Positions 42,872 through 49,004 of a DNA stretch of 64,000 nt are shown here, in pieces; within the stretch, counting starts at the first letter, position 1; each line of letters begins with the position of its first letter. This DNA is from an uncultured Spirochaetales bacterium (GTDB lineage Bacteria > Myxococcota_A > UBA9160 > UBA6930): contig CAZCTH010000010.1 in assembly GCA_964501435.1 (NCBI GenBank), forward strand, positions 3,788-67,787. The letters run 5' to 3'. Under the pieces are notes generated by a model. That model was not told the origin of the DNA. It did no database searches and saw only the letters and a list, made by a program, of their open reading frames with translations. The position numbers and the translations under genes were made by a program.

Positions 42872-43524
42872 CGCGCGCCCCCCGCGATCGCGTTCGCGAA
42901 CAGTGCGCGCACGCGCGGCGCCATGCGCGCGAGCGCGGCCGCGTCGTCCGACTCGACTGCACGGGCCGCGCTCGTGAGCACCGCGCCGACCAGGCTCGAT
43001 GCGAACGTCTCGGGGTCGAGGCCGCCCAACTGGCCGGCGCGCGCGGCGCGGCGTGCGACCTCGACCACCCAGGCGCTGAAGCGGTCGAAGATCTTGTGCG
43101 TGCGATCGCCCAGCTCCCCGCGCGCGCGCCAGGGCATGCCGTGCGTCGCGCGCATGGTGATGCGCACGATGTCGCGGTTCTGCTCGAAACAGGCGAACAG
43201 GGCGTCGGAAACCGCGAGCAGCTTCTCGGCCGCGTCGGCGGTGGCCTCCACGCGCGCGCGGACCGCGGCTTCGACCGCTTCGCCCACGCTCGCCGCGACC
43301 GCCTCGAACAGCTCGTCCTTGCCCGCGAAGAGCTGGTAGACGCTCGCCAGCGACACCTCGGCGCGCGCCGCGATCTCGCTCATCTGAGCGCCGAAGTAGC
43401 CCTTCTCCGAGAACACGCGCGAAGCCGCGGCAATCACGTCGTCGCGGCGCAGGGCGATCTCGCGCGCGCGCCGGCCCGCGCGCGGAGAGCGGATGGGGCG
43501 TCGCGGAGCCGCTGCGCGAACCAT
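42868..43524 (-). CDS. TetR/AcrR family regulator
   Basis: AASRVFSEKGY...IAARAEVSLASVYQLFAGKDELF HTH; GTGA overlap with the MFP. Confidence 0.92.
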   Translation of the reverse strand: MVRAAAPRRPIRSPRAGRRAREIALRRDDVIAAASRVFSEKGYFGAQMSEIAARAEVSLASVYQLFAGKDELFEAVAASVGEAVEAAVRARVEATADAAEKLLAVSDALFACFEQNRDIVRITMRATHGMPWRARGELGDRTHKIFDRFSAWVVEVARRAARAGQLGGLDPETFASSLVGAVLTSAARAVESDDAAALARMAPRVRALFANAIAGGAR

Positions 43525-43628
43525 GGATACTGCCTCCAGAATCCGGATTACCGTACGCGAACGCGCGAGTTCTCGCACCTACGTGCCGCTCCCTCGGGCA
43601 AGCGCGTTTGCGACGGAGCGCGGGCGCC

Positions 43629-44855
43629 TCAGGCGGCGCGAACGCGGGGCGCGGCCGCGAGCCAGGCGACGCCGACCGCGAGCAGCGCGCCACCCGCGAG
43701 TGCGATCGTCGCGCGGGGGCCGACGGCCGTGCCGAGCGCGCCGCCGAGCGCCGCGCCCGCGAGCGCAGCCCAGCGGCCGAGGAACGAGAACGCGCCGTGG
43801 ACGCGGCTCTGCACCTCGGGCGCCGCCGCCTCCTGGCGTGCGCTGAGCGCGTGGATCTCGAACACCGCGAGCCCCGCGTCGCCGAGCTGCTGCGCGAAAA
43901 TGCACGCGGCGCCGAGCCAGCTCGGCCCGGGCGCGAACGCGAGCGCAGCGGTGGCGACCGCCCCGCCGACGAGCCCGACGCCCATCGTGCCGCGCGCTCC
44001 GAAGCGTGCGCCGAGCCAGCTCGCCGCGAGGCTGCTGCCGAGCGCGGCGATGGAGCCCGCGGCGAACAGGAGGCCGAGCACGCCGGGCGCAAAGCCGAGC
44101 TCGGCGCGCACGAACAGGAAGTAGACGACGCCGAGCGCCTCGCTGCACGCGACGGCCGCCAGCGAGGCCCCGAGCAGCGCACGCAGTCGCGCGTCGGCGC
44201 GAATCGCGCTTAGGCCGGCGAGCGCCCGCGCGAGACCGCGCTCGCGCGCGGGCCCCGTGTGCGGCGCGGGCTCGCGCTCGGGGATGCCCGCGAGCAGCGC
44301 GGCGGAGGCGAGGTAGCTGAACGCGTCGGCGACGAGCGCGAGCGGCGCGGACAGCCACTGAACGAGCCAGCCGCCGCCGCCGAACGCGAGCGCCTCGGCG
44401 GCGTTGGTGCCGGCCGCGATGCGCGCGTTGCTCGCGACGAGCTGCGAGCTCGACGCCAGCGACGGCACGAAGGCCTGCCGCGCGACGCCGAACGCGAAGG
44501 ACAGCGCGCCCGAGAGCGCCGCGAACGCCCAGAGCAGCGGCATGGAGAGCGCGCCGAGCGCGTAGGCCGCGGGCACCGCGAGCAGGAGCGCCGCGTGACC
44601 GAGATCGGCACCGATCATCACGCCGCGCTTCCGGCGCGGCTCGATCCAGGCGGCGAGCCCGAGCCCGAACGTGAGGCCGGGCACGAGCCGCGCGATGCTC
44701 AGCGCCGACATCTGTGCGGCGCTTGCACCGAGGGCGTCGATCGCGACGAACGGCAGCGCGACGGCGGTGAGCATCGAGCCGAAGTTCGAGACGGTGGCAG
44801 CGGCGACGACGCGCGCGAGGTCTCGCTCCGCCCTGCCGCTGGCGCCGTCGCTCAC
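43629..44855 (-). CDS. MFS transporter
   Basis: About 12 hydrophobic segments; WIEPRRKRGVMIGADL loop. Confidence 0.88.
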   Translation of the reverse strand: MSDGASGRAERDLARVVAAATVSNFGSMLTAVALPFVAIDALGASAAQMSALSIARLVPGLTFGLGLAAWIEPRRKRGVMIGADLGHAALLLAVPAAYALGALSMPLLWAFAALSGALSFAFGVARQAFVPSLASSSQLVASNARIAAGTNAAEALAFGGGGWLVQWLSAPLALVADAFSYLASAALLAGIPEREPAPHTGPARERGLARALAGLSAIRADARLRALLGASLAAVACSEALGVVYFLFVRAELGFAPGVLGLLFAAGSIAALGSSLAASWLGARFGARGTMGVGLVGGAVATAALAFAPGPSWLGAACIFAQQLGDAGLAVFEIHALSARQEAAAPEVQSRVHGAFSFLGRWAALAGAALGGALGTAVGPRATIALAGGALLAVGVAWLAAAPRVRAA

Positions 44856-44864
44856 CTCGCAGCG

Positions 44865-45566
44865 CTAGGCGCGATTTCGCGCGAACGCGCGCGCGACCGG
44901 CGGCAGCTTCACGCAACGCTCGGCGATGGCGTTCAGCCGCGGCGCGCGGGTGCGCCACCAGTCCTTGCCCGGCCGCCACATCCGCAGCACCGGGAAGTAG
45001 AGGTCGAGCGCGCTGAAGCGCTTGCCGAGGAACCACGGCATGCCCGCGACCTCGGCGTCGAGGAAGCGCAGCAGCTGCTCGCGGTGCGCGTCGGTGCTGG
45101 CGCGCAGCTTCGGGCCCGCGTCGTCGCCGACCCAGCGCGCGGGCGCGTCGCCATACGTGAAGGTCGGATAGAGCGCGGCGACGAGGAACGCGAGCCAGCG
45201 CAGGAACTGCGCGCGCTGCGGGTCGCCGGGCGGCGGCGCGAGCTTCGCCTTGGGCGCGATCTCCGCGAGGTGCAGCAGCATCGCCGCGCTCTCCGTCATC
45301 ACCGCGCCGTCCGCGAGCACGAGCGTCGGCACCTGGCCCAGCGGGTTCAGCTTCGCGAGGCGCTGGCTGTCGGGGCCGACGTCGCTCCAGTCGATGTCCT
45401 CGATCTCGAGCGGCACGCCCGCGATCGCGTACGCCGCCTCGACGATCAGGCCGCCTCCGCCCTTCGCCGTGATCAGGCGCGCGACCGGCTTCGCCGCCTT
45501 GCGCGCGCCGCGCTTGGGCGCGCCGGACTTCGTCGCCTTCTTCTTCGCCCTCTTCTTCGCCGTCAC
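44865..45566 (-). CDS. YncG-like glutathione S-transferase with Lys-rich N-terminal extension
   Basis: NPLGQVPTL, MTESAAM, LYPTFTYGD.P.RW. GTG at 45566 overlaps the upstream stop. Embedded in a longer track ORF. Confidence 0.85.
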   Translation of the reverse strand: MTAKKRAKKKATKSGAPKRGARKAAKPVARLITAKGGGGLIVEAAYAIAGVPLEIEDIDWSDVGPDSQRLAKLNPLGQVPTLVLADGAVMTESAAMLLHLAEIAPKAKLAPPPGDPQRAQFLRWLAFLVAALYPTFTYGDAPARWVGDDAGPKLRASTDAHREQLLRFLDAEVAGMPWFLGKRFSALDLYFPVLRMWRPGKDWWRTRAPRLNAIAERCVKLPPVARAFARNRA

Positions 45567-46810
45567 GCGCCGATCTCTCGCAGCACTTCCTCGGTGTGCT
45601 CGCCGAGGCGCGGCGCGCGCCGCGAGATGCGCCACGCGCCCTTCTGCAGCGCGTAGGGCGCGCCGGGGTAGCGGAAGCTGCGGCCGTGCTCGGGGTGGTG
45701 CACTTCCACCTGGAAGCCGCGCGCCTTGAAGTGCGCGTCCTCGTAGGCCTCCTCGGGCGAGAGGATCGCGCCGACGGAGAGGCCCGCCCGCTGCAGGCCG
45801 ATGAAGAACTCGTGGGCCGTGACGCGCGAGGCGATGAAGTTCATCGCCTCGCGGCCCGCGCCGAAGATCGCCGTGAGCTCTTCGTCCTGGCCGATCTTCG
45901 AGAGATCGATCGTGGCGCGCTCGGCGCCCATCTGCAGGAACACCGCCTCGGGGAACCCCTCGGCAAGCCCGAGCTCGCCCATCCACGCGAGCAGGTTTCC
46001 GAACTCCACCGGCCGGCGCGGCGGGACGCCGGTGGTCACGTAGCGCCCGTCGGAGCAGCGGATCTGCGACGGCATGGTCGGCGTCGGGCTCGCGTGCCGG
46101 CCCGTCTGGCGCTGCGCCGTCTGCTTCGCGACGAGCCAGCCGTATGAGCCGACCTCGGTGGTCACGTTCGCCGCGGCGTGCAGGCTGACGTCGATGAACT
46201 GCCCCTCGCCGGAGACGCCGCGGGAGAGGATCGCGGTGAGGATCGACATCACCGCGTAGTGACAGCCCATCGCCCAGCCCTGATTGCCGAGCCCGCGAAC
46301 CGGAGGCAAGGCGTGGTCGTCGTAGCCGTTCATCCACACGACGCCGCCGGCGGCCATCACGGTGAGATCGGTGGCGAGCTCGTCCTTGCGCGGGCCGGTG
46401 CGCCCGAACGGCGTGATCGCGCAGTGGATCAGACGGGGATTCGCAGGCGCGAGGTCGGCGGTGTCGAGCCCGCGGGCCGCGAGCGCGCCGGGCGCCTCGG
46501 ACTCGAGCAGCACGTCGGCCGTGGCGACGAGCTTGCGCAACGCGGCGCGGCCCGCGTCGGTCGCGAGATCGAGCACGATGCCGCGCTTGCTCGTGTGGTG
46601 GTGCCACCAATGGAGGCTGCGATCGGGGCCGGGGCGATCCTCGTAGAACGGCGCGTACTGCCGCGCGGCGTCGCCGCCCGGCGGCTCGACGAGGATCACG
46701 TCGGCGCCCATGTCGGCCAGCAGCTTGCCCGCCCACGCGCACTTCTCGTTCGCGAGCTCGACGACGCGGAGGCCGTGCAGCGCTCCGGGCGCCTGCGTCT
46801 GCCCGCTCAT
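45563..46810 (-). CDS. Class III CoA-transferase subunit lacking the catalytic Asp
   Basis: LHGLRVVEL, LLADMGADVILVEPPGGD, KRGIVLDL, APRLGEHT; the Asp position is occupied by W (NQGWAMG). Confidence 0.85.
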   Translation of the reverse strand: MSGQTQAPGALHGLRVVELANEKCAWAGKLLADMGADVILVEPPGGDAARQYAPFYEDRPGPDRSLHWWHHHTSKRGIVLDLATDAGRAALRKLVATADVLLESEAPGALAARGLDTADLAPANPRLIHCAITPFGRTGPRKDELATDLTVMAAGGVVWMNGYDDHALPPVRGLGNQGWAMGCHYAVMSILTAILSRGVSGEGQFIDVSLHAAANVTTEVGSYGWLVAKQTAQRQTGRHASPTPTMPSQIRCSDGRYVTTGVPPRRPVEFGNLLAWMGELGLAEGFPEAVFLQMGAERATIDLSKIGQDEELTAIFGAGREAMNFIASRVTAHEFFIGLQRAGLSVGAILSPEEAYEDAHFKARGFQVEVHHPEHGRSFRYPGAPYALQKGAWRISRRAPRLGEHTEEVLREIGA

Positions 46811-48051
46811 ACCACGCCCTCCGCGCGCAGCTTCGCGACGTCGTCGGCCGACATCCCGAGCAGCCGGCCGAGCACCAGCTCCGTGTGCTCGCCGAGGCAC
46901 GGCCCGCCGCGCTCGATCTTCCAGTCGGTCTTCGAGAGATGCACCGGCAAGCCGTCCACGCGCACCTTCCCGAGCTTCGCGTGCGTGACGGTCGGCCAGA
47001 GGCCCCAGGCCGCCGTGTTCGGATCCTGGTCGATGCGCTCTTCGGGCTTCGCGACGGCGGCGGCCGGAACGCCGGCGGCCTGCAGCTCGCGCGCGAGCGC
47101 GTACTTCTCGAAGCCGCGCGTCCAGTCGGCGAGGCGCGCGTCGAGCGCGTCCTGCGCCGCGAGCCGGCCCGCCAGCGTCGCGAGCGACGCGTCGGTCGCT
47201 GCGTCGCCACCGAGCTTCGCCGCGAGCCGGCGCCAGTCGTCGTCGCTGCGGCATGCGATGCCGATCCACTCGTCGCTACCGCGACAGGGATAGATCCCGT
47301 GCGGCGCCATCGCCGGGCTCGACGAGCGATTGCTGTCGGGCGAGCCCGGCCGCCGGGCCGGCCGACCGTTCACCGTGTAGTCGAGCAGCGACGTCCCGGT
47401 GAGCGCGAGGCCGGCGTCCGTACACGCCATGTCCACCCATTGGCCCTCGCCGGTGCGCTGGCGATGCACGAGCGCGAGCAGGATCGCGGTCGCCATCATC
47501 ATCCCGCCGGTGTGGTCCATGTACGAGTAGCCCCAGCCCGCGGGCTCCTGACCCGGCAGCGCGGAGAGGAACGTGAGGCCCGACATCGCCTGCACGATCG
47601 GGCCCCAGGTCTTGAAGTCCGAGTACGGCCCGCGGTGGCCGAAGCCGCAGTTCGAGACGTAGATGATGTCCGGCTTCAGCTGCTTCAGGCGCTCGTAGCC
47701 GAAGCCCCAGCGCTCGAGCACGCCCTTCGCGAAGTTCTCGCTCACTACGTCGGAGCGCTTCACGATCTCGGCGAGGATCTCCTTCGCGCGCTCCTTCCGC
47801 AGGTTCAGCGTGATGCCGTACTTCTCGACGTTGTGGTTGTTGAAGCCGCCGCCGAAGTCGGGGCCGCGGCGCTCGTCCACGAACGGCGGCATCGGGCGCA
47901 GGATGTCCCAGAGCCCCTGCGTGACGGGGTCTTCGATGCGGATGACCTCCGCGCCGAAGGCGGCGAGCCACTTCGTGGCGCCGGCGCCGGCGAGCTGGCC
48001 GGTGAAGTCGCAGATGCGGAGGTGGCCGAGTGCGGTGGGCATGCGCGCCAT
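46807..48051 (-). CDS. Class III CoA-transferase (CaiB/BaiF), catalytic Asp present
   Basis: LGHLRICDF, AEVIRIED, CGFGHRGPY, YSYMDHTGG, PCLGEHT. Confidence 0.9.
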   Translation of the reverse strand: MARMPTALGHLRICDFTGQLAGAGATKWLAAFGAEVIRIEDPVTQGLWDILRPMPPFVDERRGPDFGGGFNNHNVEKYGITLNLRKERAKEILAEIVKRSDVVSENFAKGVLERWGFGYERLKQLKPDIIYVSNCGFGHRGPYSDFKTWGPIVQAMSGLTFLSALPGQEPAGWGYSYMDHTGGMMMATAILLALVHRQRTGEGQWVDMACTDAGLALTGTSLLDYTVNGRPARRPGSPDSNRSSSPAMAPHGIYPCRGSDEWIGIACRSDDDWRRLAAKLGGDAATDASLATLAGRLAAQDALDARLADWTRGFEKYALARELQAAGVPAAAVAKPEERIDQDPNTAAWGLWPTVTHAKLGKVRVDGLPVHLSKTDWKIERGGPCLGEHTELVLGRLLGMSADDVAKLRAEGVV

Positions 48052-48146
48052 CCTAAGCCCGATCCCGCGGCCGCGGCCAGGGAAGCGCCGGGTCGCGGAG
48101 CAGCCGCTTGTGCGATGGTGTCGCGAGCCCGCAGGAAGGAGCCCGC

Positions 48147-49004
48147 ATGATCGTCGGTCGCGTCGCGGAGATCTGGCGTCACCCGGTGAAGTCGATGGAG
48201 GGCGAGCGCATCGAGCGCGCGACGCTCGGCGCGAACGGCATCCCGGGCGACCGCGCCTGGGCCGTGCGCGACGAGGAGCGCGGCGGCATTCGCGGCGCGA
48301 AGAAGATCCCCCTACTGATGACGTGCCGGGCGCGTTACGCGAGCGAGCCCGCGCCCGGCGCGCCCGCGCCGGCACCCGAGATCACGCTGCCGGGCGGCGC
48401 GACGCTGCGCGCCGGCGACCCGGACGCCGCGCAGCGCATCAGCGCCGCGGTGGGCCGCAAGGTGACGCTCTGGCCGCTGCTGCCCGCGAGCGCGCTCGAC
48501 CACTACAAGCGCGGCGCGCCGGACCATCCCGACGTGATCACCGAGCTGCGCGCGATGTTCGGGCGCACGCCCGACGAGCCGCTGCCGGACTTCACGAAGT
48601 TCCCGCCCGAGCTGATGCAGTACGAGTCGCCGCCCGGCACCTACTTCGACGCGTACCCGCTGCTGATCGTGAGCGAGGCGACGCTGCGCAAGCTGCGGGC
48701 CCTCGCGCCGAGCTCCGTGATCGACGTGCGGCGCTTCCGCCCGAACCTCGTGATCGCGACCGAGACCGAGGGCTTCCCGGAGCTCGCCTGGACGGGCAAG
48801 CCGCTGCGGGTCGGCGGCGCGACCGTCGACGTCGTCGGGCCCTGCCCGCGCTGCGTGATGATCACCCACGGCTTCGGCGCGATCCCGCAAGACGCCGGCC
48901 TGATGCGCACCGTCGTGAAGGAGGCCGACCAGAACGTCGGCGCCTACGCGAGCGTCGCGCGCGGCGGCGAGGTGCGGGTCGGCGACGCCGTCGAGGTCGG
49001 CTGA
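48147..49004 (+). CDS. MOSC-domain protein
   Basis: IWRHPVKSM, GDRAWA, RRFRPNLV, CPRCVM; AAGGAG RBS. Confidence 0.9.
   Translation: MIVGRVAEIWRHPVKSMEGERIERATLGANGIPGDRAWAVRDEERGGIRGAKKIPLLMTCRARYASEPAPGAPAPAPEITLPGGATLRAGDPDAAQRISAAVGRKVTLWPLLPASALDHYKRGAPDHPDVITELRAMFGRTPDEPLPDFTKFPPELMQYESPPGTYFDAYPLLIVSEATLRKLRALAPSSVIDVRRFRPNLVIATETEGFPELAWTGKPLRVGGATVDVVGPCPRCVMITHGFGAIPQDAGLMRTVVKEADQNVGAYASVARGGEVRVGDAVEVG

Follow-up and report, generated by a model that had tools for sequence, protein, structure and literature searches.

Family III CoA-transferases such as Frc/YfdW, YfdE and CaiB build their active site from two subunits, the catalytic Asp of one and the specificity loop of the other (PMC3720670), and have two identical sites per dimer. 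The chemistry of the family was described to pass through an acyl-aspartyl anhydride and then an aspartyl-CoA thioester (PMC9196870, PMC6006322). Heteromeric and fused forms are very common and have already been described: BbsEF, the benzylsuccinate CoA-transferase, consists of two paralogous subunits encoded by adjacent genes, only one of which carries the Asp, and in DddD and PtmU4 two family III modules are paired within one chain. Here we describe genes A and B, an uncharacterised split member of this group with reversed gene order. They lie on a stretch of 64,000 nucleotides from an uncultured Spirochaetales bacterium (GTDB lineage Bacteria; Myxococcota_A; UBA9160; UBA6930; GenBank assembly GCA_964501435.1, contig CAZCTH010000010.1, positions 3,788 to 67,787 of the forward strand), which is referred to as the window and has a G+C content of 72.6%. 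Judged from sequence comparisons, A and B are very probably two subunits of one BbsEF-type family III CoA-transferase with a single active site.

Our statements on BbsEF rest on the sequences and entry titles deposited in the Protein Data Bank (PDB). In entry 9fn0 chain A has a Tyr at the catalytic site and chain B an Asp, and the title of entry 9fol names a BbsEF 'D178-CoA adduct'. A and B have their highest similarity to different chains of BbsEF. Among solved structures the closest to A is 9fn0_B (E-value 2.3e-55; 9fn0_A only 7e-27), and the closest to B is 9fn0_A (4e-52; 9fn0_B only 5e-22). Like B, the BbsE chain 9fn0_A has an aromatic residue at the site, which is Tyr in BbsE and Trp in B, and the residues ES instead of the ENF motif. 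The two systems differ in that identity amounts to only about 35-40% and that the catalytic subunit is encoded first in the window. Neither bbs beta-oxidation genes nor bss genes were found near A and B, and no set of acyl-CoA dehydrogenase, hydratase or thiolase genes follows them; the placement of benzylsuccinate CoA-transferase proper in a bbs operon (bbsABCDGH together with bss) is thus not shared by the pair. The orthologues of A and B occur in uncultured Myxococcota, Pseudomonadales, SAR202 and Acidimicrobiales, none of which is, to our knowledge, an anaerobic toluene degrader.

Another two-subunit family III enzyme is the succinyl-CoA:o-phthalate CoA-transferase SptAB / PhtSaSb (PMC11659651). 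It acts in anaerobic phthalate degradation, and its genes lie beside one for a UbiD-type decarboxylase; the window has no such gene. DddD and PtmU4 resemble the fused relatives of A and B reported below and differ from the pair itself in being fused rather than encoded by separate genes; in addition, DddD has lyase activity and PtmU4 produces thioacids. Neither a PtmA3-type ligase nor dimethylsulfoniopropionate (DMSP) genes were found near A and B. For two-domain family III proteins, 2,401 homologues were reported by Dong et al., 2018 (PMC6006322). The principle known from BbsEF, DddD and PtmU4 is left unchanged by A and B.

The gene pair and its catalytic position

The features of the pair are as follows.

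46807-48051, minus strand: gene A, 414 amino acids, family III CoA-transferase, putative catalytic, BbsF-like subunit (PF02515 2.5e-91; 9fn0_B 2.3e-55)
45563-46810, minus strand: gene B, 415 amino acids, putative non-catalytic, BbsE-like subunit (PF02515 2.1e-70; 9fn0_A 4e-52)
46807-46810, minus strand: ATGA overlap of the stop of A and the start of B, read from the sequence
46817-46822, minus strand: GGAGGG ribosome-binding box for B, 6 nt upstream of its start
47515-47517, minus strand: GAC codon of Asp179 of A, predicted covalent-catalysis residue, in the column of the catalytic Asp of Frc, YfdE and CaiB
46274-46276, minus strand: TGG codon of Trp179 of B, which occupies the catalytic Asp column
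46094-46105, minus strand: loop Thr236-Gly237-Arg238-His239 of B, predicted to reach across the dimer and to complete the site at Asp179 of A

Both proteins match PF02515 from end to end, A with 307 bits and B with 238 bits (curated cut-off 23.3 bits), and by these matches both are assigned to the family III CoA-transferases (Frc/CaiB/BaiF). They are 29% identical to each other. As A ends in TGA and B has an ATG and a ribosome-binding box of its own, two separate polypeptides are encoded and not one protein with a linker. None of the curated NCBIfam equivalogs scored above its cut-off for A, B or their fused relatives, and a promoter and terminator scan of 43400-48400 returned nothing above chance.

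The start of A is uncertain, because a second in-frame ATG at 48042, three codons from the first, is preceded by a better-placed AGGA box 8 nt upstream and alignments of orthologues to A begin at residues 2-7. The true start may therefore be this second ATG.

To locate the catalytic residue, A and B were aligned by MAFFT with the annotated Frc, YfdE and CaiB of E. coli K-12. The catalytic Asp column was occupied by Asp179 of A, within the motif PAGWGYSYMDHTGG, and by Trp179 of B, within the motif PVRGLGNQGWAMGC; both residues have the number 179 when counted from the annotated starts. The same column was obtained in an alignment of 146 sequences and in two HMM alignments, and HMMER aligned B to YfdE (4hl6) without gaps from PPVR through the catalytic position. 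The catalytic Asp is thus present in A and absent from B, which also lacks the Asn of the ENF motif. Of the features of Frc/YfdW, YfdE and CaiB, A retains the ENF motif as well as the Asp and the aromatic residue before it; A shares PF02515 with these enzymes and is predicted to share their fold. They differ from the pair in having two identical sites per dimer, where A and B have one degenerate site. Because Trp179 replaces the catalytic Asp, B is regarded from its sequence as a member of the family by fold and not as a catalytic one.

The Asp residues of B nearest to this position are D164 and D165. As candidates for a substitute nucleophile they were ruled out, because they fall at the GxxD position, which is present in Frc, YfdE and CaiB as well and precedes the catalytic Asp of these enzymes by 14 residues.

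The replacement is shared by the relatives of B. Among 120 close homologues of B the catalytic position was Tyr in 77, Trp in 28, Phe in eight, His in four and Thr in two, and Asp was never found. Such close homologues (at least 64% identity) are numerous in Myxococcota, Pseudomonadales, Binatia and Dehalococcoidia. The aromatic residue (Tyr, Trp or Phe) is a trait of the non-catalytic subunit throughout the family and not a clue to the substrate.

A preliminary description of this DNA had reported two overlapping class III CoA-transferase genes with Trp for Asp at the same position in the second. Its coordinates, strand, motifs and ATGA overlap were found as described, and the equivalence of the two positions was confirmed by the MAFFT, 146-sequence and HMM alignments; in the alignment with Frc, YfdE and CaiB no other Asp of B fell at the catalytic site.

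Pairing across genomes and natural fusions

To analyze how A and B are distributed, orthologues of B were collected from one genome per species, which gave 20 loci with 46-65% identity to B. They span Gammaproteobacteria, Myxococcota, Chloroflexota/SAR202 and Actinomycetota. In 19 of these 20 loci an orthologue of A (57-72% identity) was located directly upstream of the B orthologue. In the 146-sequence alignment every A orthologue had the Asp, in an M/L-D-H context, and the B orthologues had Tyr, Phe, Trp or Gln. A was more conserved than B in all 20 loci, B being the faster evolving partner; about 60 positions of B (14%) were nevertheless invariant across the four phyla, which indicates, at the level of sequence, that B is under purifying selection. 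Closer to the window, all eight genomes searched within the genus had B. Beyond the genus it was found in three of 10 genera of the same family, and no copy was found among 12 genomes representing other families of the order. A stood beside B in the loci of all eight relatives that were read.

Natural fusions join the same two types of module. B was matched by 1168 long proteins, and the best 120 of these were scored for residues and order. Two full-length halves were present in 114 of them; 42 had the order A-B and 78 the order B-A. All 120 A-like halves carried Asp at the catalytic position and none of the 120 B-like halves did (Tyr 60, Trp 37, Phe 12, Leu four, others). Some fusions with A-B order are 52-60% identical to A and B, and eleven more fused frames were found in the fetched loci. 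Because the fused chains always join an Asp module to an Asp-less one, a classic sign of modules that act together, the split A and B would be expected to work together as well. The A-B fusion P0123 (60% and 52% identical to A and B, respectively) was modelled by AlphaFold2 with a mean pLDDT of 86 and a pTM of 0.91, disorder being confined to the linker at 419-456, and its best fold matches were the chains of BbsEF (TM score 0.91, normalised to the chain).

Two proteins that appeared as the closest fusions, P0122 and P0125, were discounted since an Arg-rich segment replaces the end of A or one half is truncated; their appearance is that of gene calls that were frameshifted or merged, not of real fusions. 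In another fused protein, of B-A order (L028:8001-10440), the N-terminal B-type module has an Asp at the catalytic column. This Asp may represent a reversion or a two-site form.

A phylogeny of 223 modules from the window's own genome, the fetched loci, the fusions and the E. coli references was calculated with FastTree and rooted at the midpoint. Of 80 Asp-less modules 73 fell into one clade of 74 tips (support 0.73), which includes B and in which the module of L028 is the sole Asp-bearing member. The partner Asp modules, A among them, formed a separate clade of 72 tips with a support of 1.0. Frc, YfdE and CaiB of E. coli were placed outside both clades.

The window's genome (5.5 Mb, 98% complete) was also searched as a whole. 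It yielded 53 matches to PF02515, a very large expansion for a genome of this size, and the catalytic column could be scored in 48 of them, 33 with Asp and 15 without. The Asp-less modules share an open frame with an Asp module or lie at contig ends. In this census, which is free of the bias of a query, 10 A-type and 10 B-type modules were counted, and each adjoins a module of the other type or a contig end. The window pair was the only one in the genome encoded as two genes in A-then-B order.

Two further observations were made in this genome. About a dozen frames of ~800-1180 amino acids hold two modules with the Asp-less one before the Asp module (for example on contigs C1, C11, C12, C15, C16, C48, C108 and C146). 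An Asp-less module with Met at the catalytic position (G000:C59:17371-18588, plus strand; a frame of 416 amino acids) stands without an Asp module beside it; upstream, ~2.3 kb separate it from the end of the nearest family III gene, and it falls outside the main Asp-less clade.

These counts matter mainly for annotation. B-like genes are usually labelled "CoA transferase" as if they encoded independent enzymes, and would in fact encode the non-catalytic partner of a neighbour. With about 50 family III modules in the genome, of which roughly ten or more are presumed non-catalytic partners, counting one enzyme per module overstates the repertoire. Members of the lineage occur widely among uncultured bacteria. 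These include SAR202, in which the numerous paralogous CoA-transferases have been associated with the degradation of recalcitrant organic matter.

A proposed single working site and the alternatives to it

In YfdE the active site consists of Asp173 of one subunit and His233 from the GNxH loop of the partner, a loop that takes the place of the oxalate-binding glycine loop of Frc (PMC3720670). The TGRH loop of B aligns with the GNRH loop of YfdE and is invariant in 18 B orthologues. The two clades have lost different parts of this arrangement. In the B-type clade the His of the loop is kept in 57% of the modules, and the Asp, the aromatic residue ~30 positions upstream and the Asn of ENF are lost; in the A-type clade Asp is kept in 100%, the aromatic residue in 85% and the Asn of ENF in 83%, and the loop His is replaced. 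This complementary loss fits one working site, made of Asp179 of A and the loop of B, and one dead site, made of Trp179 of B and the loop of A.

We therefore propose the following model, built by homology. A and B would form an interlocked dimer with a single working active site, as in BbsEF. By analogy with Frc, CaiB and YfdE, Asp179 of A would attack the donor acyl-CoA, an acyl-aspartyl anhydride and subsequently an aspartyl-CoA thioester would be formed, and CoA would be passed to the acceptor acid. B would probably supply the acid-binding side of the site of A via its TGRH loop, and the mirror site, in which Trp179 of B faces a loop of A without His, would be catalytically dead. If so, the Asp kept in A and the partner loop kept in B give a simple, testable rule for the residues of the single active site.

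What the sequences show directly is that the residues are equivalent, that the pair is conserved and fused in nature, that the two types form clades and that A and B resemble the BbsEF chains; from this we infer that A and B form a physical heterodimer, that the B loop takes the proposed part and that the reaction is as described. The preliminary description had proposed an obligate heterodimer with the Asp in one subunit, citing BbsEF as a precedent. That the Asp occurs in only one subunit of BbsEF holds for 9fn0 and agrees with the title of 9fol, and the heterodimer itself is strongly supported by the reciprocal matches to BbsEF, the pairing in four phyla, the 120 of 120 fusions and the separate clades. 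That the pairing would be obligate is presumed from co-occurrence. For a physical 1:1 complex with one CoA adduct per pair, the natural fusions and the co-occurrence speak indirectly.

Several points weigh against this model. Because a B-like query was used to retrieve the loci, the pairing frequencies outside the census of the own genome are biased towards pairs. In one locus, L003, the A and B orthologues (L003:924-2150 and L003:8001-9215) are ~6 kb apart, the sole case in which the two are not adjacent. The A-then-B order of the window is opposite to that of the 78 B-A fusions and of the split B-A pairs in loci L021-L040. The support of the Asp-less clade is moderate, and seven Asp-less modules lie outside it. 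The fold model covers the fused relative P0123 and not the two chains of the window, and the loop of B was placed at the site of A by homology with YfdE. Finally, conservation within B is among the highest in the block D148-H184, which leads to the dead site, and that site may have a role outside the model.

The conserved block speaks for a rival proposal, in which the complex of A and B performs added or altered chemistry, as DddD does as CoA-transferase and lyase or PtmU4 in converting acyl-CoA to thioacid, with the pocket at Trp179 of B serving a second function. It would suit this proposal that no NCBIfam equivalog scored above its cut-off for A, B or the fused relatives. However, no PtmA3-like acyl-CoA synthetase or sulfur-carrier gene is found next to the pair, the nearest solved relative, BbsEF, is a plain succinyl-CoA-dependent transferase, and the conservation around the dead site could simply reflect a large interlocked interface, so that we regard altered chemistry as improbable. 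A related suggestion concerns the lineage as a whole: A-then-B pairs and the close A-B fusions would form a distinct lineage, in which the pocket of the Asp-less subunit (YDDH..PP.RG.G.Q-aromatic...CH) is invariant and of a different build. Instead of being a dead remnant, this pocket might act as a second site that accommodates a bulky substrate portion, binds an effector or carries out extra chemistry such as the lyase step of DddD. It is a slender possibility.

Two further explanations would separate B from A. The proteins could be independent homodimers encoded side by side, B using another nucleophile or binding CoA esters without transfer. Most characterised family III enzymes are indeed homodimeric (PMC3720670), and B is intact and conserved. 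Against this, each of the 120 examined fusions combines one half with Asp and one without, the census found no A-type module away from a B-type one, contig ends aside, the nearby Asp residues of B occupy the GxxD position, and the solved homologue is a heteromer; independent homodimers are thus very improbable. Likewise very improbable is that B is a decaying, functionless duplicate on its way to being lost. The lost catalytic Asp and the faster evolution of B in 20 of 20 loci would agree with decay, but the frame of B is intact and coupled to A by the ATGA overlap and a ribosome-binding box of its own, the protein keeps 46-65% identity and about 60 invariant positions across four phyla, and its lineage is old, monophyletic and retained even in fused proteins.

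Neighbouring genes and the acid substrate

Two further genes follow the pair on the same strand.

44865-45566, minus strand: glutathione S-transferase (GST) with a basic N-terminal tail (Pfam GST_N families); GTG start codon overlapping the B stop (GTGA)
43629-44855, minus strand: major facilitator superfamily (MFS) transporter, following the GST gene (PF07690)

Downstream of the MFS gene a TetR regulator, a membrane-fusion protein, an RND pump and a DUF455 pair are encoded, and a MOSC gene is divergent. Five relatives from the genus were read over the wider locus: the MOSC gene stands beside the pair in all five, and the GST and MFS genes follow in four each. Where the pair occurs elsewhere in the family, in three other genera, only A and B are kept, and GST and MFS are thus neighbours within the genus and not part of the conserved unit. 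In agreement with this, no conserved neighbour besides the CoA-transferases emerged when the genes surrounding 21 orthologous loci were clustered all against all, and the GST, MFS, TetR and MOSC proteins of the window had no match of at least 120 residues in loci L001-L040.

A Pfam tally of 120 neighbours gave 10 luciferase-like monooxygenases, seven PF02515 proteins and four each of thiolase-like proteins, MFS transporters, Amidohydro_2 proteins and alpha/beta hydrolases, and P450 was also among the themes. Luciferase-like monooxygenases, additional family III proteins, thiolase-like proteins, Amidohydro_2, hydrolases and P450 are loosely typical of the catabolism of unusual acids, and they resemble the picture described for SAR202 (PMC5395668). 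An Amidohydro_2 gene (PF04909) directly follows B in three relatives from the genus, two of which have it between B and GST (L096:7613-9274 and L095:7850-8992), and lies within ~4 kb of the pair in L001, L002, L013 and L019. It was not used as a clue to the substrate, because it is absent from the window.

The preliminary description had suggested a bulky or aromatic acid as substrate. This suggestion found no support, because no bbs-type beta-oxidation set lies near the pair; identity to BbsE/F is limited to ~35-40%, and no neighbour besides A and B is shared across phyla. Taken together, the GST, MFS and MOSC genes and the Amidohydro_2 genes of relatives point, loosely, to the breakdown or detoxification of an unusual carboxylic acid.

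In L096 the Amidohydro_2 gene is followed by a GFA gene (PF04828). The tail of the GST in the window (45480-45566, minus strand) is rich in Lys, Ala and Arg and places ~25 residues before the GST fold.

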